IMG/VR virus record: IMGVR_UViG_3300008450_000048 | Span: 1-56,390 of that record | From: a virus | Lineage: Duplodnaviria; Caudoviricetes | DNA: 56,390 nt | Strand: one strand, 5' to 3' | In this document: piece after piece, positions 4,201 to 46,101 of the stretch | Layout of the letters: each line of letters begins with the position of its first letter | Numbering within the stretch: the first letter of the stretch is position 1 | The notes under the pieces: model-generated | What the model was told of the DNA's origin: nothing | Databases searched by the model: none | Seen by the model: only the letters and a program-made list of their open reading frames with translations | Translations under genes and position numbers: made by a program

Positions 4201-5356
4201 TGCCCACATCCAGCGTGTTGCCGGTCTTCGTCAGACCCGCGCCAGCCGTGATCTGGCCTGCGCCGGAGAACTGCTCAAAGGTGATCGCGGTCGACCCCAG
4301 CGTGCCGCCTGCAGAGACCGTGCAGACCCAGCCAGAGTTGTCGTTGACCGTGCCCTGCTCCACGAACACAAACGCACCAGGCAGCTCGGCCCATGAATCC
4401 GCATCGGTGGATCGGGTCCAGCTGCCGGCCGCGACCACGTAGATGCCGTTTGCTGATGCCGTGGACTGGTTCTTGACCAGCACCCGGTCGCCAGCAATGA
4501 CCGCCACGCCGTCAATCGTCTGCGTGCCTGACAGGGTGATGTTGGCCGTCGTTGCCGCAACCACGCTGGCCTTGACATCCAGACCCTGCGCCACGCCGTC
4601 CACATAAGCCTTGGTCGCCGCATCCGCATCCGCGGTCGGTGTGCCCAGGCCCGTGATCTTGTTGGTGCCCATCGCGATGGCGCCAGACATGGTGCCGCCG
4701 GACAAGTTGAGCTTGAGTGCGAGTCCCGTGTCGACGTAGCCCTTCGTTGCCGCATCGCTTGCGTTCGTCGGCGTAGACAGGCCAGTGATCGTCCCAGCCG
4801 TGCCGGAACTCATGTCCAGCGTGCCGGTGATGGTCACATTGTTGAACGTGCTCGTGCCGCTGTTGGCGGTCACGTTACCGGTCACGTTGCCGGTCAGGTC
4901 GCCCGTCACGTTGCCGGTCACATTGCCGGTGACGTTGCCCGTCAGATTGCCGGTAAAGCCAGAGCTGGCAGAGACCGTCGTAAACGCGCCAGACGCAGGT
5001 GTGGTGCCGCCAATGGTCGTGCCGTTGATCGTGCCGCCTGCGATCGTCACAGCCGATCCCAGGTTCACCGCACCGTTTGCCGACAGCGTGGTGAAGCTAC
5101 CGGCGGCTCGAGTCGTCGCGCCAATCGGCGTGCTGTCGAGCGTTGAAGCGGTAATCGCAAGCGCCTGCAGTGCCGACGAAGCAATCAGCGCATCGCCAGC
5201 CGCATTGACCATCGCCACCTTGTAGCCATTGCCAGTCAAGGTGGGGAGCTTGGCAAAGCCAGCCGTTACAAGATCCAGCTCCGCACGCAGCGCCGCCGAT
5301 GAGCCTGGTGCATTGGGTGCCGGATAGGCGGAATGGTTGTAGTAGCTGTTTGGCAT
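1208..5356 (-). CDS. Tail fibre protein, 1382 aa
   Basis: Gly/Thr/Ala-rich; TGNV tandem repeats, three DAATKxYVD repeats, ERMRID and GNLGLG fibre motifs; follows the tail nozzle gene. Confidence 0.9.
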   Translation of the reverse strand: MPNSYYNHSAYPAPNAPGSSAALRAELDLVTAGFAKLPTLTGNGYKVAMVNAAGDALIASSALQALAITASTLDSTPIGATTRAAGSFTTLSANGAVNLGSAVTIAGGTINGTTIGGTTPASGAFTTVSASSGFTGNLTGNVTGNVTGNVTGDLTGNVTGNVTANSGTSTFNNVTITGTLDMSSGTAGTITGLSTPTNASDAATKGYVDTGLALKLNLSGGTMSGAIAMGTNKITGLGTPTADADAATKAYVDGVAQGLDVKASVVAATTANITLSGTQTIDGVAVIAGDRVLVKNQSTASANGIYVVAAGSWTRSTDADSWAELPGAFVFVEQGTVNDNSGWVCTVSAGGTLGSTAITFEQFSGAGQITAGAGLTKTGNTLDVGTASSSRIVVNTDNIDLATTGVTAATYRSVTVDVYGRVTAGTNPTTIAGYGITDAYTKTEIDTTVGTLLAKAGGTMSGQINMGSQKIVSMADPTANQDAATKFYVDSILGSATSAAASASAAATSANNAANSATSASGSASAALASANAAEAAYDSFDDRYLGSKTSNPTVDNDGNALLTGALYFNSTVGEMRVYNGSAWVAAYLPGAAYVLKAGDTMTGALTTPTLTVTGNTTLGDASTDTVTVNGYMGVGVAPNQNINIFVQKPTVGASQSQASISTFGYRGSSDASSITGVAAYASSAAAATTIANVYGLQASVTAKGAGSTITNAHAIQIPDLSEGTNNFGITSLVSSGTNKWNIYASGTAANYFAGNVLVGTTSNTAGYKFVLDGGIVNFNLVDNTSYAASGASTAAPAGYNLFCFNNNTAAADKFSGIVVGALGGTSAGHYAYMGAVSKASGFTPDMVFGVRTASASYTERMRIDSAGNLGLGVVPSAWVGTRVIEVSRLGTSIAAFSANNSYFTSNAYYDGTNWIYAATAAATHYQQTGGQHRWSTAPSGTAGNTITFTQAMTLDSNSRLTVGTTTNTNTSTVVSGGTISETVGSTQYLVASQYDVGTAANQIPLNQYLGSMAYQDSASINVANINGASDVLTIGNGQIVKDASGNLGLGVTPSAWSSNYNALQLGDTGVITGRNDTEALYLFSNAYVVTGNTQYITSDFATAYQMQDGKHSWSIAPSGTAGNAITFTQAMTLDASGRLLVGTTATANNISSEQKLAVVATGSGVFPGLSSVAYSGTTATAASIVDIKRSRGTTDGSLTVVASGDDLGYLRWWGADGTAFIRAAQISAQVDGTPGTNDMPGRLVFSTTADGGSSSTERMRINNAGITQFNSNLVMPYQGAPTSKAALATLTGAELITGILNTTGTTYTITLPTGTDIEGALTWSANNVALDWWVINTASGTITIGANGNTTLGTLTIATGVSAHFRIRRTAANTFTVYRLS

Positions 5357-7404
5357 TATCGAAGCCCTCGGCGCATTGAATAGTGGACGATCACGGTGTT
5401 CACCGTGAACGGTTTAAACAGGTTGGACACAGACGAAATACGGATGGCGATGTTCTCAGCCGTTCCCGTCACCTCAACCTCGGACGGCGAAATGTCGCGG
5501 CCATCCCAGACAAAGTTGTCCCAAGTGAATGAGTCCCAATAGGACGAACGCAAGTCGTTGCCATAGACCTGGTCAGCTGGCTGTTCAAGCTCAGACGTGC
5601 GATATCCAAGGTCATACGCAAACGAAAATTCAGCATACGAATCACCCGTCAGCTCCACGCTGGCGCGGCGATACCGCTTCAAAATCCGCGGCGAGTTGAT
5701 GCTGTTGTAAACCAATGTGATATTTGCGGAGATGTCTGCACCATCAAACGAAGTGCCAGCATCCAGCGTGTAAACGAATCCATTGGTCGATCCAAAATAC
5801 GAAGTCTCCGCACCGTCCGCATTACTGCCTTCTGAACAGCAGGTCACAGGGTTTGGAAACTGAACCGGGCCAGAACCAATCAGCTTGCCGTTGGCGACCG
5901 TCATGTAAAGCCCGGTGCCGTCACTGAAGAAAAGCCTGTACTGCCCCTTTTCGCGGTTCAGCACCGACGCTGTTGCCAACTGCCGACGAGCCTGGATGAA
6001 CGGACGGATGTTCATCGTCATTGAGTTCGACAGGAAGTTGCCGAAGTTCAGTGTCGTGGACATGCCCATCACGCCGCGCTGAGAGAGCGCATACGTCTGG
6101 TCAAGGTTTTGCGCGGTGTAACGCATCGCACCGCTGGCATTGTTAAAGTTCGACAGCTTGAAATCCGCTTCGCTGGAGCCGTACAGGATCGATGTTTCGT
6201 TTTCCGTGTAGACGCCTAGCGCGCCGCTTGTCTGGTCGCCTGGCAACTGCGGCAAGTTCGTGATGTCGTCATTCATCGCGATCTCGCCAGCACCCAGCAC
6301 CGGATCCCAGACGTAGGGATTGCCAATGCCAGAAAACTGCAGCGAGTGCCCGAAAGCTAAGAACAGATGCTGCTTGTGCGCGGCGATGCAGGTCGGCGCG
6401 TCCGGCGACATGGCGGTCGCAATCGGCACCAGGTACGTGCCGTCAAACTCAAATGCCCGGTTCTTGCCGTCGCAGAAGTACAGCTTCTGATTCGTCTGGC
6501 CGCCACCAAAGTTGGCAATGACTGTCTGCACTCGACCGTCTGCCGCCCAGGTCATCTGACTCTGCGTGCCGTTGGCCAGTGCGTACTTCGTCCCCCCGAC
6601 GTTGATGTGCTCGTTGTTTACAAAAGTTCCGGTCACCGAAGTGAAGATGATCCGGCCAGACGCATGCGGAGATCCGCCCCAAGCCCCGCCGGTGACGATC
6701 ACACGCCGGGCGATGCCTGTCGCGCCACTGGTGCCGCCGACAACGGTCGTGCCCTCAGCAATCTCTGTCGTGCCATCATCAAACGCCAGCTCAATGCCAA
6801 GCGTGACCGCAGTCCATCCACTGCCGCTGGACTTGTACATCGCCAGCGCCGTGCCGCCTACATTGTTTCGCCATGCATAGACATTGCCTTTGTAGTAGAC
6901 AACGCCTCGCACGGGACCGGAGCCAGGGACTGCCTGAATGTCAGACCTGTAGGCATCTGCCGCCAGCGCCTTGTAAGTCGCATCCAGTAAGCCATCAGCA
7001 ACCAGGTTGGAAATTGAGTTGATTGTGCCGACGTTGCTCGCGCCAACCAGCAGACCTTCTGACTCGAGAAACGTGCCAGTCTCTTTGGTGATGACAACAT
7101 CTCCACCAGAGACAGCAATAACCCGTCCGGTCGCAGATGATGTGTAGCCGGTGACGGTATTGCCTACCGCTACAGCACCAGTCAGTGTGCAGCTCAGTAC
7201 GCTGTACAGCGCAGCAGACGGCGCAGGGCGCCCATCAAACCGCTCATAGCCTGCAATGCGGGTATAGCCACCCGTGATCGAGCATTCAAAGTTTGCGCCA
7301 CGGCGCATGACGCCAGGCGGCAACGACAGCGTTGGCGTGACCTGATCCAAGCCGCCGTTCAGGCGGATCAAATCGTATCTAACCTGCGGTAGCGCCAAGC
7401 CCAT
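5356..7404 (-). CDS. Tail nozzle / DNA stabilisation protein (P22 gp10 / T7 gp12-like)
   Basis: 682 aa, beta-rich, N-terminal GGL motif; lies between adaptor and fibre genes. Confidence 0.7.
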   Translation of the reverse strand: MGLALPQVRYDLIRLNGGLDQVTPTLSLPPGVMRRGANFECSITGGYTRIAGYERFDGRPAPSAALYSVLSCTLTGAVAVGNTVTGYTSSATGRVIAVSGGDVVITKETGTFLESEGLLVGASNVGTINSISNLVADGLLDATYKALAADAYRSDIQAVPGSGPVRGVVYYKGNVYAWRNNVGGTALAMYKSSGSGWTAVTLGIELAFDDGTTEIAEGTTVVGGTSGATGIARRVIVTGGAWGGSPHASGRIIFTSVTGTFVNNEHINVGGTKYALANGTQSQMTWAADGRVQTVIANFGGGQTNQKLYFCDGKNRAFEFDGTYLVPIATAMSPDAPTCIAAHKQHLFLAFGHSLQFSGIGNPYVWDPVLGAGEIAMNDDITNLPQLPGDQTSGALGVYTENETSILYGSSEADFKLSNFNNASGAMRYTAQNLDQTYALSQRGVMGMSTTLNFGNFLSNSMTMNIRPFIQARRQLATASVLNREKGQYRLFFSDGTGLYMTVANGKLIGSGPVQFPNPVTCCSEGSNADGAETSYFGSTNGFVYTLDAGTSFDGADISANITLVYNSINSPRILKRYRRASVELTGDSYAEFSFAYDLGYRTSELEQPADQVYGNDLRSSYWDSFTWDNFVWDGRDISPSEVEVTGTAENIAIRISSVSNLFKPFTVNTVIVHYSMRRGLR

Positions 7405-8114: not shown

Positions 8115-8588
8115 TTACACCGGGTTAGCAAGCATCTTGCGCAGCCAAGGCGCGCCCTGCTTCGGATTCGGATCGTGCGATACAGAGAACGGATACGTAA
8201 GCGACAAGACGTTTTCCTCTTGGAAGCCCATCGAACCATCCTGGTTGACGATCTTCTTCTGACGAACACGCGACTGCTTGGCTTGCGCCAATACAGCAAC
8301 GTGATACCTACGCAGCTTCTGAGGCTCACCGTTGCGCATCAGCAGACGATAGTCACCGTTGACATTCACCTCACAAAACTGCGGGTCGTTCTCATTGCCC
8401 GGTTCCATCAGGATGACTTCCATTTCGTCTCGCATGAAAGCTTCTTCATCCAGTGCATCAGTGCTCAGCACTCGATCAGTGTCGACTTCATGGCCGCCTT
8501 TTGTGGCTTCCGCCGCGGGCTGCACCTTGTTCACGATCTCCACGTCCTCAGACGAGACACCGCGCTTGCGCTCGTAGGTATTGGTCAT
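8115..8588 (-). CDS. Hypothetical protein in head-tail module
   Basis: GGAG RBS; co-oriented and tightly packed with structural genes. Confidence 0.7.
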   Translation of the reverse strand: MTNTYERKRGVSSEDVEIVNKVQPAAEATKGGHEVDTDRVLSTDALDEEAFMRDEMEVILMEPGNENDPQFCEVNVNGDYRLLMRNGEPQKLRRYHVAVLAQAKQSRVRQKKIVNQDGSMGFQEENVLSLTYPFSVSHDPNPKQGAPWLRKMLANPV

Positions 8589-36345: not shown

Positions 36346-36372
36346 AGACGGGGGCATTGCCCCCATCCTTTA
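36346..36372. terminator. Hairpin between convergent operons
   Basis: GGGGGC-ATT-GCCCCC between the two facing stop codons. Confidence 0.5.
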
Positions 36373-39300
36373 TCTCAGACCCGCCGCTCGTTCCTTGTTG
36401 TCCTGCAGTTTCTGACGGCGCTCAAGCTTGTAGTCCTGCGCCTTCTCTTGCACCTTCTCGCTCGGTTCGTATTCCAACACTTCCTTGCTCAGGAACTTAC
36501 CCGACTCAACGTCGCGCTTCATCTGCATGAAAAGCGCATTGAAGTCTCGAGCCACGCTCACTCGCTCGCGCTGAATGTCTTTTCGCATCTGAGTGATGTC
36601 AGACTTTGACAGCGAATCATCGCTGGCAATTTCCAGCTCACGCTTGCGCAGCTCGCTCATCAAGTCGGTGTAGACCTTCGCTGCTTTACCCAGCGACTGC
36701 AGGCCGACGTTCTCTTCGTCGTACTCAAACTTGATACCCATCTTTGCACGACGGCCAGCCTCGTCGGCTGCCTTCATGACATCCGCACGGCGCTTGTAGT
36801 ACTCCGACAAGTCGGTGCTCTCATCAGCCTCGCCGTAGAAAGCTTTCAGGATCGGGATGTCCTTTGAGTTGATGTCAGCAACCGGGTCCATCATCTTGCT
36901 TGGGATGTTGACGAACACTGACGACAGGAAGTCGCCGGTGCCGCCAGTCACGTTGCGCACCACGTTGCGAATCGTGCCCGGAGCTAGATCAATACCGCCG
37001 GCCACAGCCGCATCGCCACCAGTTGACGAGTTCAGCCAACGCGCCAGGCGCTGCTCCCACGAACCGGCCATCGCCGGCGTGTAGTTCTCCGAGTCCGGTC
37101 TCTGGTCGAAGGGACTCTTGGCTGGCGACGTGGGCTTGCCAAACGCATCCACGCCTGCGCCGAACTGAATGCCCACGTCGACGATCGACGGGGCCGCGGC
37201 CAGCGCCACCTCCACCGGCTTGCTCGGATCGAACGCACCACCCATCGGGTTGAATGCACCAAAGACAACCGAGGTCATATTGATCGCAGCCTGACCCACG
37301 GTCTTGCCACGCTTGGCGTCTTCGCCGTGGCGCAGCACGTCAGCGATCTGATAGCCCAACGTGCTGAACACATTCAGTCCGTACTGGATTGGTATTTTCA
37401 TGTACCGGCCGCGGCTGCCGACGCGGGCGTAACCGGTTCCAATCAGCGGGTCACCTGGCGGCAGCATGATGATGATGTTGCGCTGCTTGATATCGTCAGG
37501 GATCTTGTCCCAGTACGCTTGACCATCGTCGTCGTCACCACCAGTAGACGCCGCCATGAACGCCAGCGCGGTGGAAAAACCAGTCAATGCAGTCATTAGA
37601 CCCATCACGTACGGGTTGCGCAGATTCTTCAGTGTCTTTGCCGTACCCTGCACGCCTGCATTGAAGAACACATAAGCCGTGTTCATCGCACTGCCCCACT
37701 CGCCCTTGCGGTTGAAGTTGGTCGACACTTCCTTCGCAATTGATGCCGCTCTTGCAGGTGACAGACCCATCTCACGGGCTGCCTTGTAGGCGGCAAAGCG
37801 GGCTTGCGTTTCGCTGTACTGGCCGACCCACTCCAGCGTGTCCAACAGACCCTTGGCCGCACGGTAGGTCGCGAACTTCGTACCGGATCCACCTTCCCAG
37901 GTCATCATCCGGCGCAGCTCTTTCTGCATGTCCTTTGTGTTGCGCATGTGCCAGCCGCCAGTGGTCGCACCTGCTGCCCGGAACTCTTCATAGATCGGGC
38001 CAGACTGTTTCGGATTGGCGTAGTTCTTGATGAACAAGGCCATTCCTTTCGGACCCAGATCAGCCAGCATGGAAGTCGATGCAAAGCCGAAGTCCTTGAC
38101 TGCGTTGGTTACGCCGAACGCCGGGTTGAATCGGGTCAAGGTGTTGCGCATCAGGTTGGTAAACCAGCCAAGGTTCTTGACCAAAAACTTCGTCACCTCG
38201 CCGGTCTCGTCCTTACCAGCCTGGCGCAGTGCGCGAACCAGCAGCGGATCGTTGACCTTGATGTAAACCTCTTTGCCGTCCACCTTGACCGACACGGTGT
38301 CTTCACCCTTGTCGATCAGCTTGTTGTACTGAACCATGCCGGTCTGCTTGTTGAACGATGCCGCTGTGCGCTTGGCATCGATCTCCCACAGATCCGGGTC
38401 AGGGTTGGTGGTGACAAGATCCAAGAACTTCTTCGCGACATTGTTGCGCTCTGCTCGAGCGATCGCACGCTCGTAGTCGCTGATGATGTTCTCGATGATG
38501 TGACCAGCGCGCGACGTTCTACCCAGAGCGCGAACAGTTTCTTTGCCGCGGATGTTGAATCCCTTGCCGCCACCCACCCGTGGGCTGCGCACCTGCTCAC
38601 CTGAAACGAGATCGCTCTCGTCAGTGATAAAGCCACGCAGCGGTACGTAGTAGCTGTATTGATTTTCGTATGCGTCGAACTCATCCTGCGAGATCAGACC
38701 CTCATCCAGCAGCACCAGTCGGGTGGTGGAGGTGATCGCCATCAGATCCTTGTGGATGTCCTGCAGATCCTGCAGTTTGCCGTCAGCCTGATACGCATTG
38801 ATGATGTCGTCGGCTTCCTGATCCGTCATGCCGGAGCCTTCGTCGGATGCCAGTCGCGCGTTACGCGATGACATCTCCGCGTTGCGCTCTTTCGCATGCA
38901 TCGCATAGGCGTACAGCGCCAGGTCGCTTGTCTCGAGCTTGGCCGCACGGAGCTTGGCCAGCATTGGCTTAACAGTCTTGTCCTTGAACTCAGTGAGCTG
39001 CTCTTGCAGGCGACCGTACGAAAGCGCCTCTGCAAGGTAAACGTCCTGAGCCTCGTCGACCACGCCGCCCTGCTCCGCGATCGCGTCCTGCACTTGCTTC
39101 ATGCGCAGGAAATAGTCTTGCCAGATTCGCCGCTGTTTTGCCGTGAGTGTCTCGCCTTTCAGGTAGAACTTCTGACCTTGAATAGGCTGCTGCCGCGGGC
39201 TGAAGCGGATGTCGTCAAAGCTGTCCACGTTGGCCAGCATCTGAGGTGACAGGCGCTCACCTTTGCCATCGAGCACAGCCTGCAGACCGCGCAGGATCGG

Positions 39301-42300
39301 CGCGTCTGAGCGCAGGCCAAGCAATCCCTTGGCCTTCTGCAGCATCTCGCCCAACCACTGCTTGGCCTGGCGGATCCACGAGCCTGCCTCATAGCGGCGC
39401 TTCAGGATGTCGGTCGCATTGACCGCCCAGTACTCGCTCGGGTTGACCAGCTGATAGTGATCGTCAGCGCTTAGCGTGCCGTCGGAGAATGCATTGCGGA
39501 CAAGCTTCTGCGCAGCCTGATCACCGGCCATTGCAGGCAGCATCTGCTCAAGTGCAGCGCGCTGCTTTTCGTCAGCCTTCGACAGCGCTTTGCTGTACGC
39601 ATTCGCCCACTCTTTGCGGATGCCATCTTGCACAGCAGACGGCATCATCCGCTCGGTGTGGTGCAGGATCTCGTGAACAGCGGTGCCCTCGTTCGCCCTG
39701 CCTTTGAAGACCCGCATGATCTCGGCGGCAGGGTTGTAGTCGCCGGCGGCACCGCGCTGGTTGGCGGGCTGCTCGCGCACGCTGATGCCAAGACCTTCTG
39801 CCATGGCAGGGTTCTGAGCCAGCGCCCACAGCGCAAACTCGGTTGTATCGTAGTCGACCTCGTTGCGACGGCGAGCTGCCAGCAGTTTCTCGCGGACGAT
39901 GTCTGCGCCACGCTCGCGCTTGCTGAGGATGCGGTTGGCTTCCTTGGTCGCAGTGACATTGGCCATGCGGTCCGCAAGCAATCGCACCTGAAGCTCGAAC
40001 TCAGCAGGCGTGAGCTTGCCGTCGTCGAGCTTTTTGATGATGCCGTTTATCTTGCGCGACGCCTGCACACGCGGCGTGTCAACGATCTGGTATCCCTGGT
40101 AAGCCAGCTGGCTGATGCCGCTGCGGTCTTCGCGCTGGCTGAACGCCGGCATATCGCCGACCAGTCCTTCGCTCCAGGTCCACTCTGGCATCAAGCCAGT
40201 CTTTTGATCAGCAAAGACGGTGTCCTCGACCTTGGCGGTACGGTTGCTCTCGCCGTAAGGACCGTAATTCAGCCAGCTGTTTTGACCGCGGGTCTCGCTG
40301 GTAATCGCGCCTCGTGCGCTGCCAGTGAACAGACGCACGTGCGCCTGCCAGGCATTCTCTTCGCCTTGCTCCCGGAAGCCGGCGCCCTCGAGGCCATGGC
40401 CGAATGCATCATGCACTGCACGGAATAGGTCGTTGGCCAGCACACGCTTTTGCTTGCCGTACACCGAGCCGTACGGCCACGTGATGCCGGTGTCCTGCAG
40501 CATGACGTTGTCAACCGGCGCTTCGGTGGTGCCAAACCCCGCTTCGGTCGCAAAGACGCCCATACGCTTCTTGGCCCGCAGCTCGCGCATCGCGTTCCAC
40601 GGATTGCCGTCGTAGGGGTCGTTGGTCTCGTCGAAGAAATAGAACTTGTAGCCAGCCTTTTCCAACGCCTTGTATTGCGCAATGGTCTGACGGACTAAGT
40701 TCTCGTAGGCTTCCTTGACCGCTGGATCTTGAGGCGCATGAGGCATGTCCTCATACGCCTGCGCGATGCGCTTGGCGCGCTCTGGATCTACTTGGACGTA
40801 TTCGGCTTGACGCTTGAGGTCGATGCCGTTGTCTCGGGCGTACTGCTCTGCGACTGCGACGAGCTGCTCGTCTGGCCCCGTGGCGCCGTCAATGCGCGGC
40901 GCACCATCGAGCGGCGCAAGGCCTCTGCCTTGATCGCGTCCTGCTCGGTCTCCGGCGTCGCGTCGGCTGAACTTGATTTCGCCGGCATCGCCCCATCCGT
41001 ACTCGTTGCTGAACTCGGTGAAGACGCGCTGGACCCTGGGCGCGAGTACAGCTCTGGCCCAGTCGAGAACATCGGATCGTCCGGCGGCACTAATCCTTTG
41101 TACGTAGCTTTCCCCATTCGGGTTCTCCTTCCAATTATTTGTCGGCATGTCGCCATCGGAAGCGAACACACGGTATTCGAACTCAGGCAACACCCCTTCA
41201 GCAACCGAGACAATGTCGGACTGAAGTATGTCGTTTGTGATTATACCAAAGTTCACAACTCTTATACCAGTGGGCGAGCTAACAAAAGCGAAGCTGTCCT
41301 GCCAGCCTTCCTTGCCGTTGTCGGCCATCCACTGGCCAACCGCCTGCTCGAGATCCGCCGCCTCGCGGGGGTTGATCGGCCTGCCAAGGTTGATGTCCAG
41401 GCCGTTCGCGTCGCGCTTCGTGCCGGCGTAGAAGGGGCGGTGCCAGCCCACGCCCTCCTGCCGGGCGACCAAGCCGGCCACCGCGGCGTACACATTGAGC
41501 GCCTCGGCCTGCGCCGGGTCGACCTTGGATTTACCCTCTTCGCCCTTGGCCGGCGCCATGGCCACGCCAAGCTGGGTGCTCGGCGACACCTCGCCTTGCC
41601 ACACGCCGGGGACCAGGATGTCGTTGTCGACAAGCAAGCCCAACCGCATGGCCAGCATGTCGTTGCCCTGCTCATCAAAGAAGGTCTTCTGGACGGCCTG
41701 CTGGAAGGCGACCTGCTGCGCATACGGCGCACTGTGAATCCCCGGCAGAACGCCTGTGGTGCGGCCAGGACGGGCCTCAAAAGAAACCTGCCCGATGTGG
41801 CGCTTCAGGCCATCGCCAAAGTCAAACTTCGCCTGCTGCGTGTCGTCCTTCGTGACATCGTGTTCGAACGAATACTTGAGCCAGTTGTCGCGATGCTTTT
41901 GCGCATCGATGATGACGCGTTTCTTCTTGCCGTCGGCGTCGCGCTCAAAGCGGATCCAACCTTTCTTCTCGCTGCTTGCCTCGGTGCGCTTCTTAACTCC
42001 GGCGTTTTCCATCCGTGCCTTCATCGCCACCCAGATGGCAGCCTGCACTTGCTGCGGCTCCCAGCCCAGCTCAGCAGCCAAGCGGTTGGTCTCGTTCTCC
42101 ATGAACGCATACTGTGTCTGGGTCGGCGCATCGTTGTCGTACTGACCGGCACGCATCATCCACATGTCGATCGTTGCGCCCTGCTTGCCGGCGGTCGAAG
42201 GATCGATCTCGCGCAGTAGGTTGAAGAAGAAGTTGCCGGTCTTCTCGCCCTTCCAGAATGCGTCGACATCCTGCATCGCCTCGGTCGCCTTGCGATCCTG

Positions 42301-45300
42301 GCTGCCAGTCTTAACGCTGATCGGCTGGCCGTTCTTGTACTGCGCCCACGCACGCAGCGCGAACGTGGAGTTGGCATCAACTTTCGCCTGCGGTGAGTAG
42401 ATCGCCAGCAGCGCAACGAACTTGCGCGCTTCCTGCACGTCGCCGCCCACCATCTTCAGGACTTCTTTGCCGCTGTTCTCGTACCAATAGCGACCCGGCG
42501 CGCCCTCGTCCGCCAGCTGGCGCAGGATCTTGCGCAGTGTCGGAATCTTGCCCGGCGTGTTGAATTTCGCAGGCGCACCGATGTACTTGCCGTCCTTCAT
42601 GGGCAGCTTGTCGAGCACCGCGCCGGCTCGGCTGTATGCAGTCTTCCTGCCTTCCAGCGCAGCCTTGACTCGAGGCGCTGCAGACGTGGTGAACACGATG
42701 CCGTCTTTGGTGACGCGACCCTTCACGTCATCCGGGATCTGCGCACGGATAGCATCCGGGTCACCGTAGACCACGGCCGTGCCGTCCTTCATCGTGCGAA
42801 CTTCAAAGTCACCTACCTGTTCTGCGCCACGGCGGGACATGACAGGCTCGGCTGTCTGCTCTGTCTGAACCTGCACTTGCTGTTCAGCCAGGTTGCCTTT
42901 GCGGAACTGGATCAGCGCATCGCGCGCCACCATCTTGGCTTTGTTCAGATCGCGGATGTACTGGTCGACCTTCGCGGACTCTTTGGTGCCCTGAGTCTTA
43001 CCGCCCTTCAGCTTGGCAATCAGGTTGTCGACGACGGCCAGCCAGCGCCGCACAAAACCTTCGAAGCCCTGCGGATCTTGCTGTGCCAGATCAATCAAGA
43101 ATTCCCGGTCTTGCGCACGGTTGCCAAGGAAGTCGGCAACCATCTCCGAGCGCGTGGCCGGTGCAGTCATGAACGCCTGCACCTTAGCTTCACGCTCTGC
43201 GGGATCGGCAATCTTTGCAAGATCAGCCTTGTGCAGGAAGTTTTCGATGTAGGCGCGCTTGCCCTCATCGGTCATGTCATCAAAGATGCTGTCAAGCTGC
43301 GCGGTAAATTCCTGCGCAGACTTGCTGCCAGAAGCTGCCAGCTGCTCTGCTACGTGACGCAGCTCGTGCAGCACCGTCTTCGGTGCATCGATCGCTGTTG
43401 AATCAAGCGACGTGTTGACGAACGCAATACCGCCCAGCGCAAACCCGTTGTCGCCCCTTGGATCGCTGTATGCGACAACGCGATTGCCGGTGCCAGTCGC
43501 ATCACCAAAGATACGGCCAAGCGCGCTGACAGTGGTCTCTGCATCCGCATCGGGAGTGCCGAGCTTTGGCGCATCCGGCAAACGACCGCGGGTGACAAGA
43601 TCATCTAGGTACGCTTGTACGCTGGCTCGAGAATCGGGAGCGCGTGGATTTCGGGCAAACTCTGCAAGGACGGCGTCAGGCACCGGCGACTGTCGGTCGA
43701 GGAGGTCTGGGAGCTGTCTTGCTGAGGCTGCTGGTACTTCTTGTCCTTGCGCTTCTGCTTGGACGGCTTGAGCGGTTTGAGCGACACGGGGCGTCTCCTG
43801 TGTGGGGGCGTTCAGCCCAATGGTTTCCACGGTGCCGGCGGCGGTTCCGGCGGCGGGTAATGCTTGTCTTGTGGGGGCAGCGGGTACTTGGGCATCGAAC
43901 TTTTCGTATCCAGCCAAGCGGTACTTACCGCTCGGCATTTGCTCAACCTTCCAGTCGAGCGTGGGGAACATGCGCTGACGGCCAGGCAATGCCTGCCCGG
44001 CGTCAGCCTCGGTGACATAGCCATCTCCACGCCGGCCAGTCCATTGCTCAACCGGCTGTGTATTAGCATTGTTATCTTGCTGCGGATTCAAGGCAGCCTG
44101 AACACGTGCGGCCAGGTCCTGATCAGTGGCGCGCTGGTCAACCTGCGGCAGCCTACTTAGACCGGGAGGCAGTTCTCCGGCTCGGCCTCGAGCAGCCACA
44201 TCCGCCCCAGCATTGGCTGTAATGCTTCCGGCATCTCCACCAATTCGTGCGGTGTCATCGATACCAAGTCCTGGAATGCCCAGGCTTCCGCCAAGCTGAT
44301 CGCTCCCTGTGAGACTGCCCAAGCCAGTTGCGGCTCTAGTTGCGCTATCTGTGCTGACATCAGGAACCTCCGTAGAAGCAGGAACAATGATCGGAGCCAG
44401 GCCAGCCTTCGCGCTTGGGCTGTCGGCAGGTGTGAAGTTCATCTCGCTGCGCATAGGCGCAGCTGTAGCAACGTCGCCGGGTGGGCGCGTTGTCTGCGAA
44501 GGGTCAATCAGTGTCGGGTCATACGTCTTGGGATCCAGCAGGTACGTGGCTGTGAGATCACCCGCGCTGGCCATCTGATCCTGCTGTTGCTGCTGCTGCG
44601 CGTCTTTGTACTGACTGCGAATGGCAGCTGCACTGAATGGCGCCGACGTGACGAGCGCGGTTCCCATTGCTTCTGGAACGCCCTCAAACAGCGACTGCTT
44701 AGGATCGACAGTGCGAGTCACCACGTTACTGCCCAGCTGCGTGCCGCCCTCCTCGAGCTGCTCACCGACCAGATCTTTGCCGGCGGTCTTTGCCATCCCC
44801 TTGACGGTCAGCGCCTCTGCCGCAGTCTTACCCAAGCCTCGAGAAGCGATCGCAGCCTCAGCACCAGCGTAGCCAAGCAGACCAAGCGGAGCGGTAATTA
44901 GAGCCGCCATCCTGGCCTTGGTCGTGGCGATCTCTTCGATCGCCTGCGACTCAGTCTTGCCTTCCTTAACCAGCTTCTGGAAGTCGGGGTTCTGCCTCCA
45001 AACGGACAGAGGAACTTTGTCCCGGTCGGTCAGGTTTTCGTACACGTTGCCAGCCGCATCACCGCCAGCCATGACCATGGATGCACCCACGCCGCCGGTC
45101 GTTGTGCCGATGGCTCTACCGGCTGTGGAAAGACCGCCGCCGGTGATTGCCTCGCTCACAGCGACAGCAGGACTCACCCGGCCAGCAACATTCACTGCGC
45201 CAGATGTAGCCGCGCCGACCACTCGTGCTGCGCCCACAATGCCAAGGAAGTTCGGCAACTGTTTGGCAGCTTCAGAAATAGTCAGCGTTGGGTCAGTGAC

Positions 45301-46101
45301 GAGCTGCTGCACTGTCGCCACGTACTGATTGAAGAAACCTTCTTCGCTGAGAACACGCTCCCTGAAACGCTCACGGCTTGCCTTCAGGACATCGGACTCT
45401 GCCGCCTGCAGTTCCTTCTGCGTCTCGCGCAGTGTCTGAGCAATCTCGCTGCTGGGCGCAATGATGTTGATGGGTAGTTGAACGAGACCGACACCACCCT
45501 GCGACAGACTTGAGATTGTGTCGATCGCCCACTCACCAGGCGTTCTAAACTCTTCTGCCTTGGCGTCGCGTGCTCCACGAATATTGACCGGGTCTTTTGC
45601 TTTCTTTACCAGCTCACCAAAGCTTGGCGCGTTGACGCGCTCCATACCTTTGGCAGTACGCTGAACGACTGCGTTGTCGCTCTTTGCCAATCCGCTGCGC
45701 ACAAGGTCAGCTTGAGATGCAGTCTCGGAAGAGATGGGGCCGGCACCGTACGACAAACGGCGATCCAAGTCAGAACGCACTTGCTCGGGCGTGGCTTTGT
45801 AACCATCCATCACGCTCTTTGGTTCCGGCTTGAAAAAGTCGGCCACGCGCTGAATGATGCCGCGCTCATCCTTGGCAGGATTCAGCGGGTTGTCGACAGT
45901 GTCGCGCTTGCCTGGCTGGGGTGCAGCGCGGGGAACTGATGTGGTAGCAAGGAACTGATCCCTTGCAATAGACAAATCTTCTTGCGGAACTTGAGGCGCG
46001 ATCACCGATTCAAAATACTGGTTACGAGCCTCTTCCTGTTCTTCAAGAGAGAGGGCCTGGAATGCGGGGCTTCCCGCTACGTCAGACCATTTCTTTGCCA
46101 T
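36370..46101 (-). CDS. Large polyvalent internal virion / ejection protein, 3243 aa
   Basis: C-terminal LPD38-like region (NFNRKG, FFNAGVQG, WDKIP, KIPIQYG); HELRH and HEILH zincin motifs; RAVHDAFGH domain; WY...TIDMWM...QVQAAIW domain; last gene of the ejection operon. Confidence 0.85.
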   Translation of the reverse strand: MAKKWSDVAGSPAFQALSLEEQEEARNQYFESVIAPQVPQEDLSIARDQFLATTSVPRAAPQPGKRDTVDNPLNPAKDERGIIQRVADFFKPEPKSVMDGYKATPEQVRSDLDRRLSYGAGPISSETASQADLVRSGLAKSDNAVVQRTAKGMERVNAPSFGELVKKAKDPVNIRGARDAKAEEFRTPGEWAIDTISSLSQGGVGLVQLPINIIAPSSEIAQTLRETQKELQAAESDVLKASRERFRERVLSEEGFFNQYVATVQQLVTDPTLTISEAAKQLPNFLGIVGAARVVGAATSGAVNVAGRVSPAVAVSEAITGGGLSTAGRAIGTTTGGVGASMVMAGGDAAGNVYENLTDRDKVPLSVWRQNPDFQKLVKEGKTESQAIEEIATTKARMAALITAPLGLLGYAGAEAAIASRGLGKTAAEALTVKGMAKTAGKDLVGEQLEEGGTQLGSNVVTRTVDPKQSLFEGVPEAMGTALVTSAPFSAAAIRSQYKDAQQQQQQDQMASAGDLTATYLLDPKTYDPTLIDPSQTTRPPGDVATAAPMRSEMNFTPADSPSAKAGLAPIIVPASTEVPDVSTDSATRAATGLGSLTGSDQLGGSLGIPGLGIDDTARIGGDAGSITANAGADVAARGRAGELPPGLSRLPQVDQRATDQDLAARVQAALNPQQDNNANTQPVEQWTGRRGDGYVTEADAGQALPGRQRMFPTLDWKVEQMPSGKYRLAGYEKFDAQVPAAPTRQALPAAGTAAGTVETIGLNAPTQETPRVAQTAQAVQAEAQGQEVPAASARQLPDLLDRQSPVPDAVLAEFARNPRAPDSRASVQAYLDDLVTRGRLPDAPKLGTPDADAETTVSALGRIFGDATGTGNRVVAYSDPRGDNGFALGGIAFVNTSLDSTAIDAPKTVLHELRHVAEQLAASGSKSAQEFTAQLDSIFDDMTDEGKRAYIENFLHKADLAKIADPAEREAKVQAFMTAPATRSEMVADFLGNRAQDREFLIDLAQQDPQGFEGFVRRWLAVVDNLIAKLKGGKTQGTKESAKVDQYIRDLNKAKMVARDALIQFRKGNLAEQQVQVQTEQTAEPVMSRRGAEQVGDFEVRTMKDGTAVVYGDPDAIRAQIPDDVKGRVTKDGIVFTTSAAPRVKAALEGRKTAYSRAGAVLDKLPMKDGKYIGAPAKFNTPGKIPTLRKILRQLADEGAPGRYWYENSGKEVLKMVGGDVQEARKFVALLAIYSPQAKVDANSTFALRAWAQYKNGQPISVKTGSQDRKATEAMQDVDAFWKGEKTGNFFFNLLREIDPSTAGKQGATIDMWMMRAGQYDNDAPTQTQYAFMENETNRLAAELGWEPQQVQAAIWVAMKARMENAGVKKRTEASSEKKGWIRFERDADGKKKRVIIDAQKHRDNWLKYSFEHDVTKDDTQQAKFDFGDGLKRHIGQVSFEARPGRTTGVLPGIHSAPYAQQVAFQQAVQKTFFDEQGNDMLAMRLGLLVDNDILVPGVWQGEVSPSTQLGVAMAPAKGEEGKSKVDPAQAEALNVYAAVAGLVARQEGVGWHRPFYAGTKRDANGLDINLGRPINPREAADLEQAVGQWMADNGKEGWQDSFAFVSSPTGIRVVNFGIITNDILQSDIVSVAEGVLPEFEYRVFASDGDMPTNNWKENPNGESYVQRISAAGRSDVLDWARAVLAPRVQRVFTEFSNEYGWGDAGEIKFSRRDAGDRAGRDQGRGLAPLDGAPRIDGATGPDEQLVAVAEQYARDNGIDLKRQAEYVQVDPERAKRIAQAYEDMPHAPQDPAVKEAYENLVRQTIAQYKALEKAGYKFYFFDETNDPYDGNPWNAMRELRAKKRMGVFATEAGFGTTEAPVDNVMLQDTGITWPYGSVYGKQKRVLANDLFRAVHDAFGHGLEGAGFREQGEENAWQAHVRLFTGSARGAITSETRGQNSWLNYGPYGESNRTAKVEDTVFADQKTGLMPEWTWSEGLVGDMPAFSQREDRSGISQLAYQGYQIVDTPRVQASRKINGIIKKLDDGKLTPAEFELQVRLLADRMANVTATKEANRILSKRERGADIVREKLLAARRRNEVDYDTTEFALWALAQNPAMAEGLGISVREQPANQRGAAGDYNPAAEIMRVFKGRANEGTAVHEILHHTERMMPSAVQDGIRKEWANAYSKALSKADEKQRAALEQMLPAMAGDQAAQKLVRNAFSDGTLSADDHYQLVNPSEYWAVNATDILKRRYEAGSWIRQAKQWLGEMLQKAKGLLGLRSDAPILRGLQAVLDGKGERLSPQMLANVDSFDDIRFSPRQQPIQGQKFYLKGETLTAKQRRIWQDYFLRMKQVQDAIAEQGGVVDEAQDVYLAEALSYGRLQEQLTEFKDKTVKPMLAKLRAAKLETSDLALYAYAMHAKERNAEMSSRNARLASDEGSGMTDQEADDIINAYQADGKLQDLQDIHKDLMAITSTTRLVLLDEGLISQDEFDAYENQYSYYVPLRGFITDESDLVSGEQVRSPRVGGGKGFNIRGKETVRALGRTSRAGHIIENIISDYERAIARAERNNVAKKFLDLVTTNPDPDLWEIDAKRTAASFNKQTGMVQYNKLIDKGEDTVSVKVDGKEVYIKVNDPLLVRALRQAGKDETGEVTKFLVKNLGWFTNLMRNTLTRFNPAFGVTNAVKDFGFASTSMLADLGPKGMALFIKNYANPKQSGPIYEEFRAAGATTGGWHMRNTKDMQKELRRMMTWEGGSGTKFATYRAAKGLLDTLEWVGQYSETQARFAAYKAAREMGLSPARAASIAKEVSTNFNRKGEWGSAMNTAYVFFNAGVQGTAKTLKNLRNPYVMGLMTALTGFSTALAFMAASTGGDDDDGQAYWDKIPDDIKQRNIIIMLPPGDPLIGTGYARVGSRGRYMKIPIQYGLNVFSTLGYQIADVLRHGEDAKRGKTVGQAAINMTSVVFGAFNPMGGAFDPSKPVEVALAAAPSIVDVGIQFGAGVDAFGKPTSPAKSPFDQRPDSENYTPAMAGSWEQRLARWLNSSTGGDAAVAGGIDLAPGTIRNVVRNVTGGTGDFLSSVFVNIPSKMMDPVADINSKDIPILKAFYGEADESTDLSEYYKRRADVMKAADEAGRRAKMGIKFEYDEENVGLQSLGKAAKVYTDLMSELRKRELEIASDDSLSKSDITQMRKDIQRERVSVARDFNALFMQMKRDVESGKFLSKEVLEYEPSEKVQEKAQDYKLERRQKLQDNKERAAGLR
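40788..41117 (-). CDS. Putative nested out-of-frame gene within the giant gene
   Basis: AAGGAG RBS about 7 nt before ATG 41117; MGKATYKGLVPPDDPMFSTGPELYSRPG then Ser-rich sequence. Confidence 0.4.
   Translation of the reverse strand: MGKATYKGLVPPDDPMFSTGPELYSRPGSSASSPSSATSTDGAMPAKSSSADATPETEQDAIKAEALRRSMVRRALTAPRGQTSSSSQSQSSTPETTASTSSVKPNTSK
44157..44360 (-). CDS. Putative nested out-of-frame gene within the giant gene, 67 aa
   Basis: GGAGG 6 nt before ATG 44360; protein-like helical sequence where the main frame is low-complexity linker. Confidence 0.55.
   Translation of the reverse strand: MSAQIAQLEPQLAWAVSQGAISLAEAWAFQDLVSMTPHELVEMPEALQPMLGRMWLLEAEPENCLPV

Follow-up and report, generated by a model that had tools for sequence, protein, structure and literature searches.

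The gene of a 3243-residue polyvalent protein in a tailed phage very probably harbours a second gene of 67 codons, hidden in another frame of the same strand. The small gene would be translated on its own, and it is of a kind that gene finders usually miss. The window, i.e., the whole stretch of DNA that was analysed, comprises the 56,390 nucleotides of virus record IMGVR_UViG_3300008450_000048, and it also encodes terminase, portal/adaptor and tail genes. The nested open reading frame (ORF) was present at the same place and in the same frame in every related sequence examined, and it is therefore very likely to encode a real protein.

According to the arrangement that we propose, ribosomes coming from the start of the giant gene would read through the stretch in the main frame, where they would make a low-complexity, flexible linker joining the conserved N-terminal module to downstream domains that vary. 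A second set of ribosomes would initiate internally at the Shine-Dalgarno (SD) site and ATG (44371..44358), in the +1 frame. Internal initiation would yield a separate acidic protein of 67 residues, predicted to form three helices and ending at the TAA listed in Table 1. We infer translation of the nested ORF itself from the comparisons described below.

Position and Signals of the Nested Open Reading Frame

The nested ORF lies wholly within the giant gene (46101..36370, minus strand) and on the same strand. Its start is offset by 1741 nt from that of the giant gene, which places it in the +1 frame of the latter. A first-pass annotation of the window had reported a GGAGG located 6 nt before an ATG that opens an ORF of 67 aa in another frame of the same strand. 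All of these elements were confirmed in the sequence, and the translation was identical to the reported one at every letter. The program-made ORF listing contains the same frame as an entry of 76 aa (44157..44387), counted from an upstream TTG. The product begins with MSAQIAQLEPQL, and its sole Cys is residue 64. The GGAGG (44371..44367) gave a duplex energy of -10.2 kcal/mol with a generic anti-SD sequence, which ranks it in the top 0.4% of the positions sampled in the giant gene. No promoter or terminator was found within 43900..44900.

The giant protein scored above the Pfam gathering threshold for LPD38 in a multi-domain phage protein, which identifies it as an LPD38 polyvalent protein, and its PHROGs matches (14770, 616 and 10691) are each of unknown function. 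Over the nested ORF, the main frame reads DVSTDSATRAATGLGSLTGSDQLGGSLGIPGLGIDDTARIGGDAGS..., a translation rich in G, A, S and D. The GC content at third codon positions is 0.41 in this linker vs. 0.61 in the upstream part of the giant gene.

Table 1. Coordinates of the nested gene, its ribosome-binding signal and the parts of the host gene in the window.
Feature	Position	Strand	Details and basis
Nested gene	44157..44360	-	ATG 44360..44358, 67 codons, TAA 44159..44157; sequence and substitution phase
Shine-Dalgarno-like GGAGG	44367..44371	-	Spacer of 6 nt (44366..44361) to nested ATG 44360..44358
Host gene, large polyvalent protein, 3243 aa	36370..46101	-	Pfam LPD38, DUF7178; PHROGs
LPD38 domain, residues 2864-3069	36895..37512	-	Pfam E 1.7e-20, 74.3 bits, cut-off 27
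DUF7178 domain, residues 1199-1362	42016..42507	-	Pfam E 4.2e-13, 50.1 bits, cut-off 27
Main-frame "passenger" linker, residues 581-649	44156..44361	-	G, A, S, D-rich translation
N-terminal module, about 580 aa, with G/A-rich hydrophobic stretches	44361..46101	-	phmmer linkage across loci

The length of the ORF is no argument for or against a gene, since it ranks only ninth among the same-frame ATG ORFs of the giant gene (153, 122, 122, 104, 85, 84, 77, 73 and 67 aa). The eight longer ORFs and the regional GC content of 0.59 are what a functionless open frame, arisen by chance in a GC-rich gene, has in its favour. Such an origin is next to impossible in our judgement: all of the comparative results are contrary to it, and the ORF is kept in genomes with a GC content of 0.43-0.44, where long chance ORFs are rare.

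Conservation Among Related Loci

The comparison set consisted of the window and 17 other phage or metagenome contigs, with a locus GC content of 0.43-0.65. These 18 loci include several close pairs (window/L006, L007/L008, L015/L016, L017/L018 and L025/L026) and are not independent lineages, so that naive products of probabilities would overstate the case. All 18 loci kept the ATG, the SD-like site and the +1 nesting, together with a stop that sets the length at 66-69 codons; the surrounding host frames are open for 1403 to more than 3000 aa. All three stop codons occur at the end of the nested gene across the set. The first-pass annotation had raised three outcomes that would speak against a gene, namely stops in the nested frame of homologous giant genes, loss of the ribosome-binding site or ATG, and selection on the main frame only. 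No such stop was found in any of the 18 loci, the ATG and SD-like site were retained throughout, and the nested frame was the more constrained of the two.

The duplex energies of the SD-like sites ranged from -5.5 to -11.7 kcal/mol. The site fell in the top 1% of the positions of its own giant gene in 11 loci and in the top 15% in all 18; the weak ones were those of L007-L009, L019 and L025 (-5.5 to -5.8 kcal/mol, top 8-14% only). In the main frame, the T of the nested ATG occupies the third position of an Asp or Asn codon; the base is a T in 18/18 loci, while the share of T-ending Asp/Asn codons in those giant genes is only 14-69%. The closest relative of the window (contig G001; 91% nucleotide identity over 321 nt) carries the ATG and GGAGG unchanged, and its stop is placed as in the window, with TAA replaced by TAG.

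The same loci bear on a trans-frame isoform, in which ribosomes would shift by +1 just before 44360 and end at 44157, joining the N-terminal module to the 67-aa domain with no internal initiation. Two points favour it: +1 shifting can be promoted by an internal SD-like site, as happens in prfB, and no nested-frame stop interrupts the 26 codons that precede the ATG in the window, or the more than 100 that precede it in L007-L009 and L018. In L026, L024 and L006, however, the nested frame is stopped 3, 4 and 6 codons ahead of the ATG, respectively, and the frame was not found open to a conserved shift site as a programmed +1 frameshift demands. The bases before the ATG are unconserved and present no common slippery motif, all 18 loci keep the ATG in spite of the host frame's codon preference, and related proteins form 60 clusters of stand-alone gene-caller products, mostly starting with MSA. 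We consider frameshifting very improbable on these grounds.

Evolutionary Constraint on the Two Frames

A comparison of the window with its closest relative gave substitution counts at main-frame codon positions 1/2/3 of 14/2/0 in the overlap, as against 52/29/163 over the 566 codons of the flanks (Fisher p 6e-8). The substitution phase changes to that of the nested frame exactly across the nested ORF. When the 16 sense-codon substitutions were read in the nested frame, 14 were synonymous and two were not (A to S and T to A); this was a manual reading of the alignment, while the 14/2/0 count was made independently. In a scan of the whole gene against the same relative (totals 167/92/561), only the segments at 571 (12/4/1) and 601 (9/2/4) showed position 1 far above position 3. 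The scan flagged the interval 571-660 aa, together with a fast-evolving segment at 751 aa whose phase is unclear (16/8/14). The first-pass annotation had suggested that such linkers in general may carry overprinted genes; within this giant gene, the signature was confined to one stretch.

The pattern extends beyond the closest relative. The main-frame third-position rate was lower inside the overlap (0.00-0.22 per codon) than outside it (0.06-0.66) in 8/8 locus pairs. Across 12 loci, the minimum numbers of changes at nested codon positions 1/2/3 were 61/44/80, and the mean pairwise identity was 0.66 in the nested frame vs. 0.47 in the host frame, with the nested frame ahead in 66/66 pairs. As read from these substitutions, purifying selection on the nested frame is shown, and with it the suppression of synonymous change in the host frame. 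Of the two readings, the small protein is under the stronger selection, and the earlier description of the 3243-aa frame as the passenger over this interval holds, the host frame being the less constrained one. Codon usage does not tell the primary frame cleanly: the nested frame fitted the usage of the gene better in 14/18 loci, and the four in which it did not include the three low-GC loci.

Embedded RNA elements, too, are marked by a host frame in which synonymous change is suppressed, and the constraint might come from an RNA structure or a DNA site, with the ORF being incidental. The change is, however, re-phased and not suppressed overall, with the nested third positions varying most, and the position of the stop is kept while the stop codon itself varies. 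Only the nested and host frames are open in all 18 loci, and the amino-acid covariation over 66 sequences gives a confident predicted fold. Non-coding constraint is, on this evidence, an extremely remote explanation.

The host frame is open over the overlap in 18/18 loci. When the nested protein was held fixed and its codons were drawn at random among synonyms, the host frame stayed open in 4-17% of the recodings per locus, whereas it is in fact open in 12/12 modelled loci. The third sense frame is open in 1/18 loci, and the antisense frames in 5, 2 and 0 of 18. As far as open frames can tell, this shows true dual coding, with the host frame also maintained.

Protein Family and Predicted Structure

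The family search returned 63 clusters at E ≤ 1e-3, from which three long repeat-like matches were dropped and 60 were kept as single-stretch proteins of 61-88 aa; the family therefore counts at least 60 clusters. Its members are strongly acidic, the 66 analysed having a median net charge of -6 and a median pI of 4.4, and Cys makes up 0.6% of the residues. The AlphaFold2 model reached a pLDDT of 88.2 and a pTM of 0.69 with 66 sequences, compared with a pLDDT of 68.8 with 14 sequences. Helices are predicted at residues 10-17, 23-35 and 45-58 of the nested product.

The nested product had no family match in Pfam and PHROGs, and the 66 members gave no consistent Pfam match and hit no PHROG family. 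No match was obtained in a PDB profile search with the family or with Foldseek against the PDB using the predicted model. A wide structure search with VIA-align gave a best Z of 3.9, which is within noise for helical models, and the best score of 0.75 in the ESM Atlas provided no fold lead. Complex prediction of the nested protein with giant residues 170-581 scored 0.00, a value below the mark that speaks neither for nor against an interaction.

The contig scans were queried with single proteins and with a 6-sequence alignment. The scan with the single protein P0040 found no relative, and the prokaryote genome contigs scanned contained no relative of the nested product, so that they offered no prophage or host clue. 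INPHARED searches gave no match by blastn with 2.5 kb around the nested ORF, nor by tblastn with the 67-aa product, the main-frame module, P0023 or P0043, or the N-terminal 900 aa of L023. The annotated records of cultured phages are probably without this nested gene, and distant versions of it are probably present in the cultured phages PEp14, Pavtok and Serratia phage Parlo. Taken together, the sequences at hand indicate that this is a wide, unnamed family, known only inside such giant genes.

Genomic Context and Possible Function

The N-terminal parts of the host proteins were linked by phmmer in 17/18 loci (E ≤ 1e-5, single linkage), and the nested gene lies at the same junction, directly after the N-terminal module, in all 18. 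Its start corresponds to giant residues 486-779 in the first 15 loci, and the N-terminal part measures 514-562 aa in L024-L026. The downstream parts of the host proteins fall into three unrelated groups. The LPD38 domain was detected in the window and its closest relative only (1/5 other records searched), while other host proteins carry ART-PolyVal or DarB-like parts. LPD38 was considered as the common denominator of the hosts and was rejected on this count. The first-pass annotation had taken LPD38-type giant genes as its reference and had asked whether relatives lie in their alternate frames; the placement in an alternate frame of giant genes holds in 18/18 loci, but the restriction to LPD38-type hosts does not. 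The C-terminal 976 aa of the giant protein matched 0/4 records, an empty answer that shows little with the search used.

Record MW202426.1 contains a giant gene with a related N-terminal module but without a nested member. No free-standing copy of the nested gene was found in the viral, metagenome and genome contigs scanned. Eight matches to shorter proteins with the N-terminal module were obtained and none was unfused; P0084, one of the eight, is without the surrounding module, and P0085 is apparently cut at a contig end.

Because the nested gene is in every case preceded by a homologous N-terminal module, whereas the parts after it differ, we tentatively suggest that the small protein may be an accessory factor for the constant portion of the giant protein, which is itself probably delivered with the virion. 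Such a factor could help the N-terminal module to fold, stay soluble or be loaded, and would not be dedicated to any single enzymatic domain. The first-pass annotation had put forward an inhibitor of particular enzymatic domains; the conservation of the small protein in the face of differing downstream domains speaks against this role. A chaperone or partner protein, also raised there, is conceivable. It is by position alone that the nested protein is tied to the giant protein, with no known fold or family as a lead.

A job unrelated to the giant protein is a serious possibility, if a little less than an even one. The small protein might, for instance, be an acidic anti-defence or host-takeover factor, translated separately, for which the linker of a long late gene would be a safe site for overprinting. 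The core comparative evidence for a real gene fits this equally, and some giant genes with a related N-terminal module do without the nested gene. Several phage anti-restriction proteins are strongly acidic, as is this family. Furthermore, recombination cannot split a nested gene from its host, so that constant co-occurrence needs no functional link and co-inheritance is weak evidence for one. Opposed to this are the shared junction downstream of a homologous N-terminal module in all 18 loci, the lack of a free-standing copy in the contigs scanned, and the lack of a PADLOC-type or anti-defence match in the family and fold searches.

A more specific history is also conceivable, although we regard it as unlikely. 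The small gene could be the older, primary reading, and the giant genes of this phage group could have arisen when an N-terminal delivery module and exchangeable cargo were joined across it, its other frame becoming the linker. The small protein would then be an escort or loading factor needed for the giant protein to fold or to be packed into the capsid, with a second branch in PEp14, Pavtok and Parlo, where the giants are DarB-like.

Comparison With Known Systems

Nested out-of-frame genes are textbook matter for tiny phages and for the Rz/Rz1 pair. In large dsDNA phages they are considered rare, and gene callers are designed to discard them. The nearest arrangement is Rz1 in Rz of lambda and its relatives, likewise a small gene with its own SD site and start, on the same strand and in the +1 frame, in a tailed dsDNA phage; an rz1 nested in rz is also annotated in Erwinia phage PEp14. 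Rz1 belongs to the lysis cassette and is a lipoprotein that is secreted and binds Rz, the product of its host gene, whereas the nested protein described here has no signal peptide or lipobox, which sets it apart from o-spanins. Its host is the gene of a 3243-aa polyvalent protein in the virion region and not an i-spanin gene in a lysis cassette.

The overprinted genes of small phages (B in A, E in D and K of phiX174; L of MS2) are similar in their out-of-frame, same-strand overlap, in that both frames are selected and in that one frame is more tolerant. Those overlaps are explained by compression of genomes of about 4-6 kb, whereas the genome analysed here has about 56 kb and the overlap lies in a disordered linker of a 9.7-kb gene. 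The usual overprint is young and disordered; the nested product presents the opposite, being well folded according to prediction and encoded in the more conserved frame.

Giant multi-domain phage proteins are thought to be injected to fight host defences. The Dar system of P1 offers at most a functional analogy: the small proteins DarA, Hdf and others act with the giant DarB, which is packaged in the head and injected. According to PMC12810830, DarA and Hdf are associated with head morphogenesis. DarB-like C-terminal parts (phrog_10089) occur in some of the host proteins described here; the P1 genes, by contrast, are separate genes with no nesting. As far as the Pfam, PHROGs and structure searches with the family reach, no likeness in sequence, family or fold to accessory proteins such as DarA, Hdf and DdrA emerged.

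The host gene is a member of the large polyvalent proteins (Iyer, Burroughs, Anand, de Souza and Aravind, 2017; PMC5512222), with LPD38 as its representative domain here. Sections of that paper describe phage-type polyvalent proteins as likely to be packaged in the capsid and LPD38 as confined to them, and its passages on embedding, reading frames and overlap do not describe a gene nested in another frame.

The comparative support for the nested gene is unusually clean, and it concerns a family of at least 60 clusters without a known relative or fold. A nested family at a fixed junction of the giant genes would be a missing component to consider in the making, packing or delivery of their products. 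The scan of substitution phase between close relatives is a worked example of how hidden genes can be found that ORF length would miss. Replacing the nested ATG by ACG does not alter the host-frame protein, as the Asp or Asn codons concerned are synonymous, and the small protein could therefore be removed without touching the giant protein, which provides a clean genetic handle.

The nested reading frame and its host gene

The nested ORF begins 1741 nt inside the 9732-nt ORF of the giant gene, which places it in the +1 frame (Table). The 3243-aa giant protein matched Pfam LPD38 (74.3 bits, cut-off 27) and DUF7178, as well as three PHROGs of giant function-unassigned proteins, and the 56,390-bp virus record also carries terminase, portal/adaptor, tail and replication genes. 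The first-pass annotation had described a 67-aa product in another frame of the same strand behind GGAGG and ATG, overlapping a G/A/S/D-rich stretch of the main frame. This description was accurate: the product is identical to the one recorded there, and the main-frame translation across the overlap is rich in G/A/S/D.

Table. Positions of the nested ORF, features of the giant gene and counterparts in related phages.
Feature	Position	Strand	Details
Nested ORF	44360..44157	-	ATG 44360, 67 sense codons, TAA 44159..44157
GGAGG	44371..44367	-	six bases before ATG 44360
Giant host ORF	46101..36370	-	3243 aa
HExxH motif, residue 912	43354-43368	-	VLHELRHV
HExxH motif, residue 2143	39661-39675	-	VHEILHH
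Linker, residues ~751-810	43700-43850	-	A/T/Q-rich, indel-rich
C-terminal 976 aa	36370-39300	-	
Insertion in giant gene of G001, the closest-relative contig	L005 7903-8776		~540 nt extra, near window gene nt 6890
Nested ORF, Erwinia phage PEp14 (L028)	4841-5071		76 codons, +1 frame, start at giant residue 822
Nested ORF, Erwinia phage Pavtok (L031)	4607-4837		76 codons, +1 frame, start at giant residue 837
Counterpart, Serratia phage Parlo (L033)	8219-8434		71-76-codon class, +1 frame with SD, giant residue ~800-840
Further stretch, PEp14	7073-7393		giant codons ~1566-1672
Further stretch, PEp14/Pavtok	giant codons ~3537-3626

The giant gene has a GC content of 0.60, and its +1 frame holds eight ATG ORFs longer than the nested one, up to 153 aa; length is therefore no argument for a gene. 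The question of chance is settled, at the level of sequence, by comparison with relatives. The closest relative, an IMG/VR contig (G001, with loci L001, L005 and L006), is 91% identical to the window over 321 nt around the ORF; GGAGG and ATG are unchanged, and the stop keeps its position with TAA replaced by TAG. When the alignment was read by eye, 14 of the 16 sense-codon substitutions were silent in the nested frame and two changed a residue. A script counted 14/2/0 substitutions on main-frame codon positions 1/2/3 inside the overlap versus 52/29/163 in 566 flanking codons (Fisher p 6e-8). Over the alignable giant gene the totals were 167/92/561, and a whole-gene scan found position 1 swamping position 3 only at residues 571-660 (windows of 12/4/1 and 9/2/4). 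One further window (751) was flagged with 16/8/14, its phase not being clear; it falls in a fast-evolving linker which, without a coding phase of its own, forms a contrast to the dual-coded linker. The insertion in the giant gene of this contig encodes ~180 aa extra. The giant ORF then breaks off directly behind a string of N, translated as XX, and its apparent division into ORFs of 2564 and 910 aa probably reflects a gap in the assembly, not biology.

Conservation across the wider family

Relatives were sought with the 67-aa product as the query, not the giant protein. This yielded six loci on viral contigs (64-97% identity), five on metagenome contigs (57-79%) and three called proteins, and a profile search of 1.84 billion representatives gave 63 clusters at E<=1e-3, of which 60 were single-stretch proteins of 61-88 aa. 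P0031, P0056 and P0063, with long, multi-stretch, repeat-like matches, were left out of the family, and P0040 as a further query found no relatives. DNA for distant members (L017, L018, L019, L024, L025 and L026) encoded proteins 30-43% identical to that of the window.

The window and 17 other contigs gave 18 loci, several of them close pairs, so that the counts below are not 18 independent trials. The protein-search matches were nested in the +1 frame of a longer open frame (1403 to >3000 aa) at all 18 loci; each began with ATG, ran for 66-69 codons and stopped at the conserved position. TAA, TAG and TGA are all in use, and GC spans 0.43-0.65. An SD-like site precedes the ATG throughout, with duplex energies of -5.5 to -11.7 kcal/mol that rank in the top 1% of positions of the own giant gene at 11 loci and in the top 15% at all. 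The middle base of the nested ATG falls on the third position of an Asp/Asn codon in the main frame and is T at all 18 loci, although only 14-69% of Asp/Asn codons in those giant genes end in T. Interruptions of the frame and loss of the ATG or ribosome-binding site, named in the first-pass annotation as signs against the gene, were absent at all loci.

Selection on the two frames

Across 12 loci, minimum changes by nested codon position 1/2/3 were 61/44/80, as is usual for coding sequence. Pairwise identity averaged 0.66 for the nested and 0.47 for the host reading, the former scoring higher in all 66 pairs; the main frame is thus the less constrained over the overlap, as had been proposed. 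Third positions of the host frame changed more slowly inside than outside the overlap in eight of eight locus pairs. Selection is therefore not confined to the main frame. In a recoding model of 12 loci that kept the nested protein constant and randomised its synonymous codons, 4-17% of recodings per locus were expected to leave the host frame open; the real host frame was open at each of these 12 and at all 18 overall. The third sense frame was open at one of the 18, and the antisense frames at five, two and none. Codon usage pointed to the nested frame as native at 14 loci, with GC3 over the overlap at 0.60-0.95 in the nested frame versus 0.28-0.45 in the host frame, and was ambiguous at four, including the three of low GC. 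These sequence patterns argue that the overlap is true dual coding, with the linker of the giant protein as the looser reading, and that the nested ORF is very probably a real gene.

Same-strand overprinting with its own SD is an already known kind of phenomenon; new here are its setting, the protein family and a reversal of the conservation, the nested frame being conserved above its host. Large surveys of small phage genes may hold family members without remarking on nesting. The full-text literature searched contained no description of an out-of-frame gene inside the giant gene of a polyvalent or DarB-like protein, and none is given in the passages of Iyer et al. 2017 (PMC5512222) on embedded or overlapping reading frames.

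The small protein

Family members are acidic, with a median pI of 4.4 and a median net charge of -6, rich in Leu (19%) and poor in Lys (1.2%). Its conserved signature is roughly MSA-x4-L-x3-L-x2-AV-x3-(A/V)(L/I)(S/T)-x2-EAW-x2-QD ... P-x2-L ... R(L/M)-x-L, frequently ending in N-x-L-P-(L/V/A/I). The AlphaFold2 pLDDT was 68.8 with 14 sequences and 88.2 (pTM 0.69) with 66, the latter model predicting helices at 10-17, 23-35 and 45-58. No signal peptide, membrane segment or lipobox was found, and Pfam, PHROGs, PDB sequences, Foldseek, VIA-align (best Z 3.9) and ESM Atlas returned no known relative. Called family proteins are named 'hypothetical protein' where a name is given. Most come from contigs of 0.4-3.3 kb and three from contigs of 39-59 kb; where no more than a fragment of the giant frame is present, gene callers would appear to choose the nested one.

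Mosaic host genes

The carrier genes had been called LPD38-type, a label that does not extend to the family: LPD38 was seen only in the window and its closest relative, one of five other records searched. One host (L021, 3399 aa) has ART-PolyVal, and two others (L022 and L023, ~2200 aa) have DarB-like end regions. By BLAST, the giant protein of the window shares almost nothing with those of L017-L019. An N-terminal module of ~500-780 aa is common to the hosts, phmmer-linked at 17 of the 18 loci (L024 apart), and ends just upstream of the nested gene. Beyond that point the giant proteins sort into three groups with no relation to one another. The nested gene therefore marks the junction between constant module and variable cargo. 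A related module without a nested member occurs in the giant genes of phage record MW202426.1 and P0084. Another homologue of the module, P0081 (1736 aa), matches PF14528 under the source name 'intein/homing endonuclease', which suggests a polyvalent protein holding an intein.

Of the two HExxH motifs in the giant protein, that at residue 912 is kept as HE(I/A/V)YH in related loci, and the region may be a metallopeptidase-like domain uncalled by Pfam. The C-terminal 976 aa matched 346 records. Among them are unannotated or 'LPD5 domain-containing' giant genes of many short-tailed Stx-converting phages, at ~31% identity over 89% of the length; phages of Vibrio, Ralstonia, Burkholderia and Bacillus also have matching genes, and the closest record was MW202426.1 (43%).

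Proposed expression and possible role

Both overlapping frames are maintained, the nested one with its own conserved start signals, and internal initiation on the long late mRNA would allow the small protein to be made independently of the giant protein. Stops in the nested frame lie three (L026), four (L024) and six (L006) codons upstream of the ATG, so a start farther upstream or a distant frameshift cannot produce it. The suggestion that it inhibits a particular enzymatic domain is unlikely to be right, as is a domain-specific immunity role, since this protein stays the same in hosts whose enzymatic cargo differs. Our modest favourite, put forward tentatively, is that it acts with the constant part and helps the N-terminal module to fold, stay soluble or be loaded into the capsid; accessory proteins of the P1 Dar system (PMC12810830, PMC9024508) offer a loose analogy for such a helper. 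About equally likely is a role unrelated to the giant protein, for example in countering host defences as an acidic factor.

Nested ORFs in cultured phages

A search with the DarB-like C-terminal part of L023 matched giant genes in 32 cultured phage records. Seven of these and MW202426.1 (L020), all annotated, were scanned in six frames with the family profile in two batches (L027-L030 with L020, then L028 again with L031-L033). In PEp14 and Pavtok the ORF has GGAGG 9 nt before its ATG and profile scores of E 6e-4 to 2e-3 in these small searches; the Parlo counterpart is weaker (E 0.94; 39% identity over 28 aa). Atu_ph08, Mwe-JY07, Skulduggery, SopranoGao and MW202426.1 gave no profile match at E<=1. 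Between PEp14 and Pavtok, substitutions were 24/14/17 inside the ORF versus 353/227/1179 gene-wide (Fisher p 3e-8), with identity of 68% in the nested versus 57% in the host frame. Sequence comparison thus gives good support for a nested gene in a similar position in these phages. Its homology to the family of the window is probable, with a profile-profile (hhalign) probability of 40% and E 2.9e-4 over 50 columns. The ORF is unannotated in all three records; the PEp14 record does annotate the Rz1 gene within Rz.

Elsewhere in the PEp14 and Pavtok giant genes, two stretches show fewer third- than first-position substitutions, with windows of 9/4/7 and 8/3/4 at codons ~1566-1672 and of 20/8/15 and 12/5/11 at codons ~3537-3626. 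Their +1 frames are open for 107 and 90 aa, respectively, and they may be further nested genes. The 107-aa segment of PEp14 holds ...GLSNQEAWEM... and matches the family profile weakly (E 0.3-0.8).
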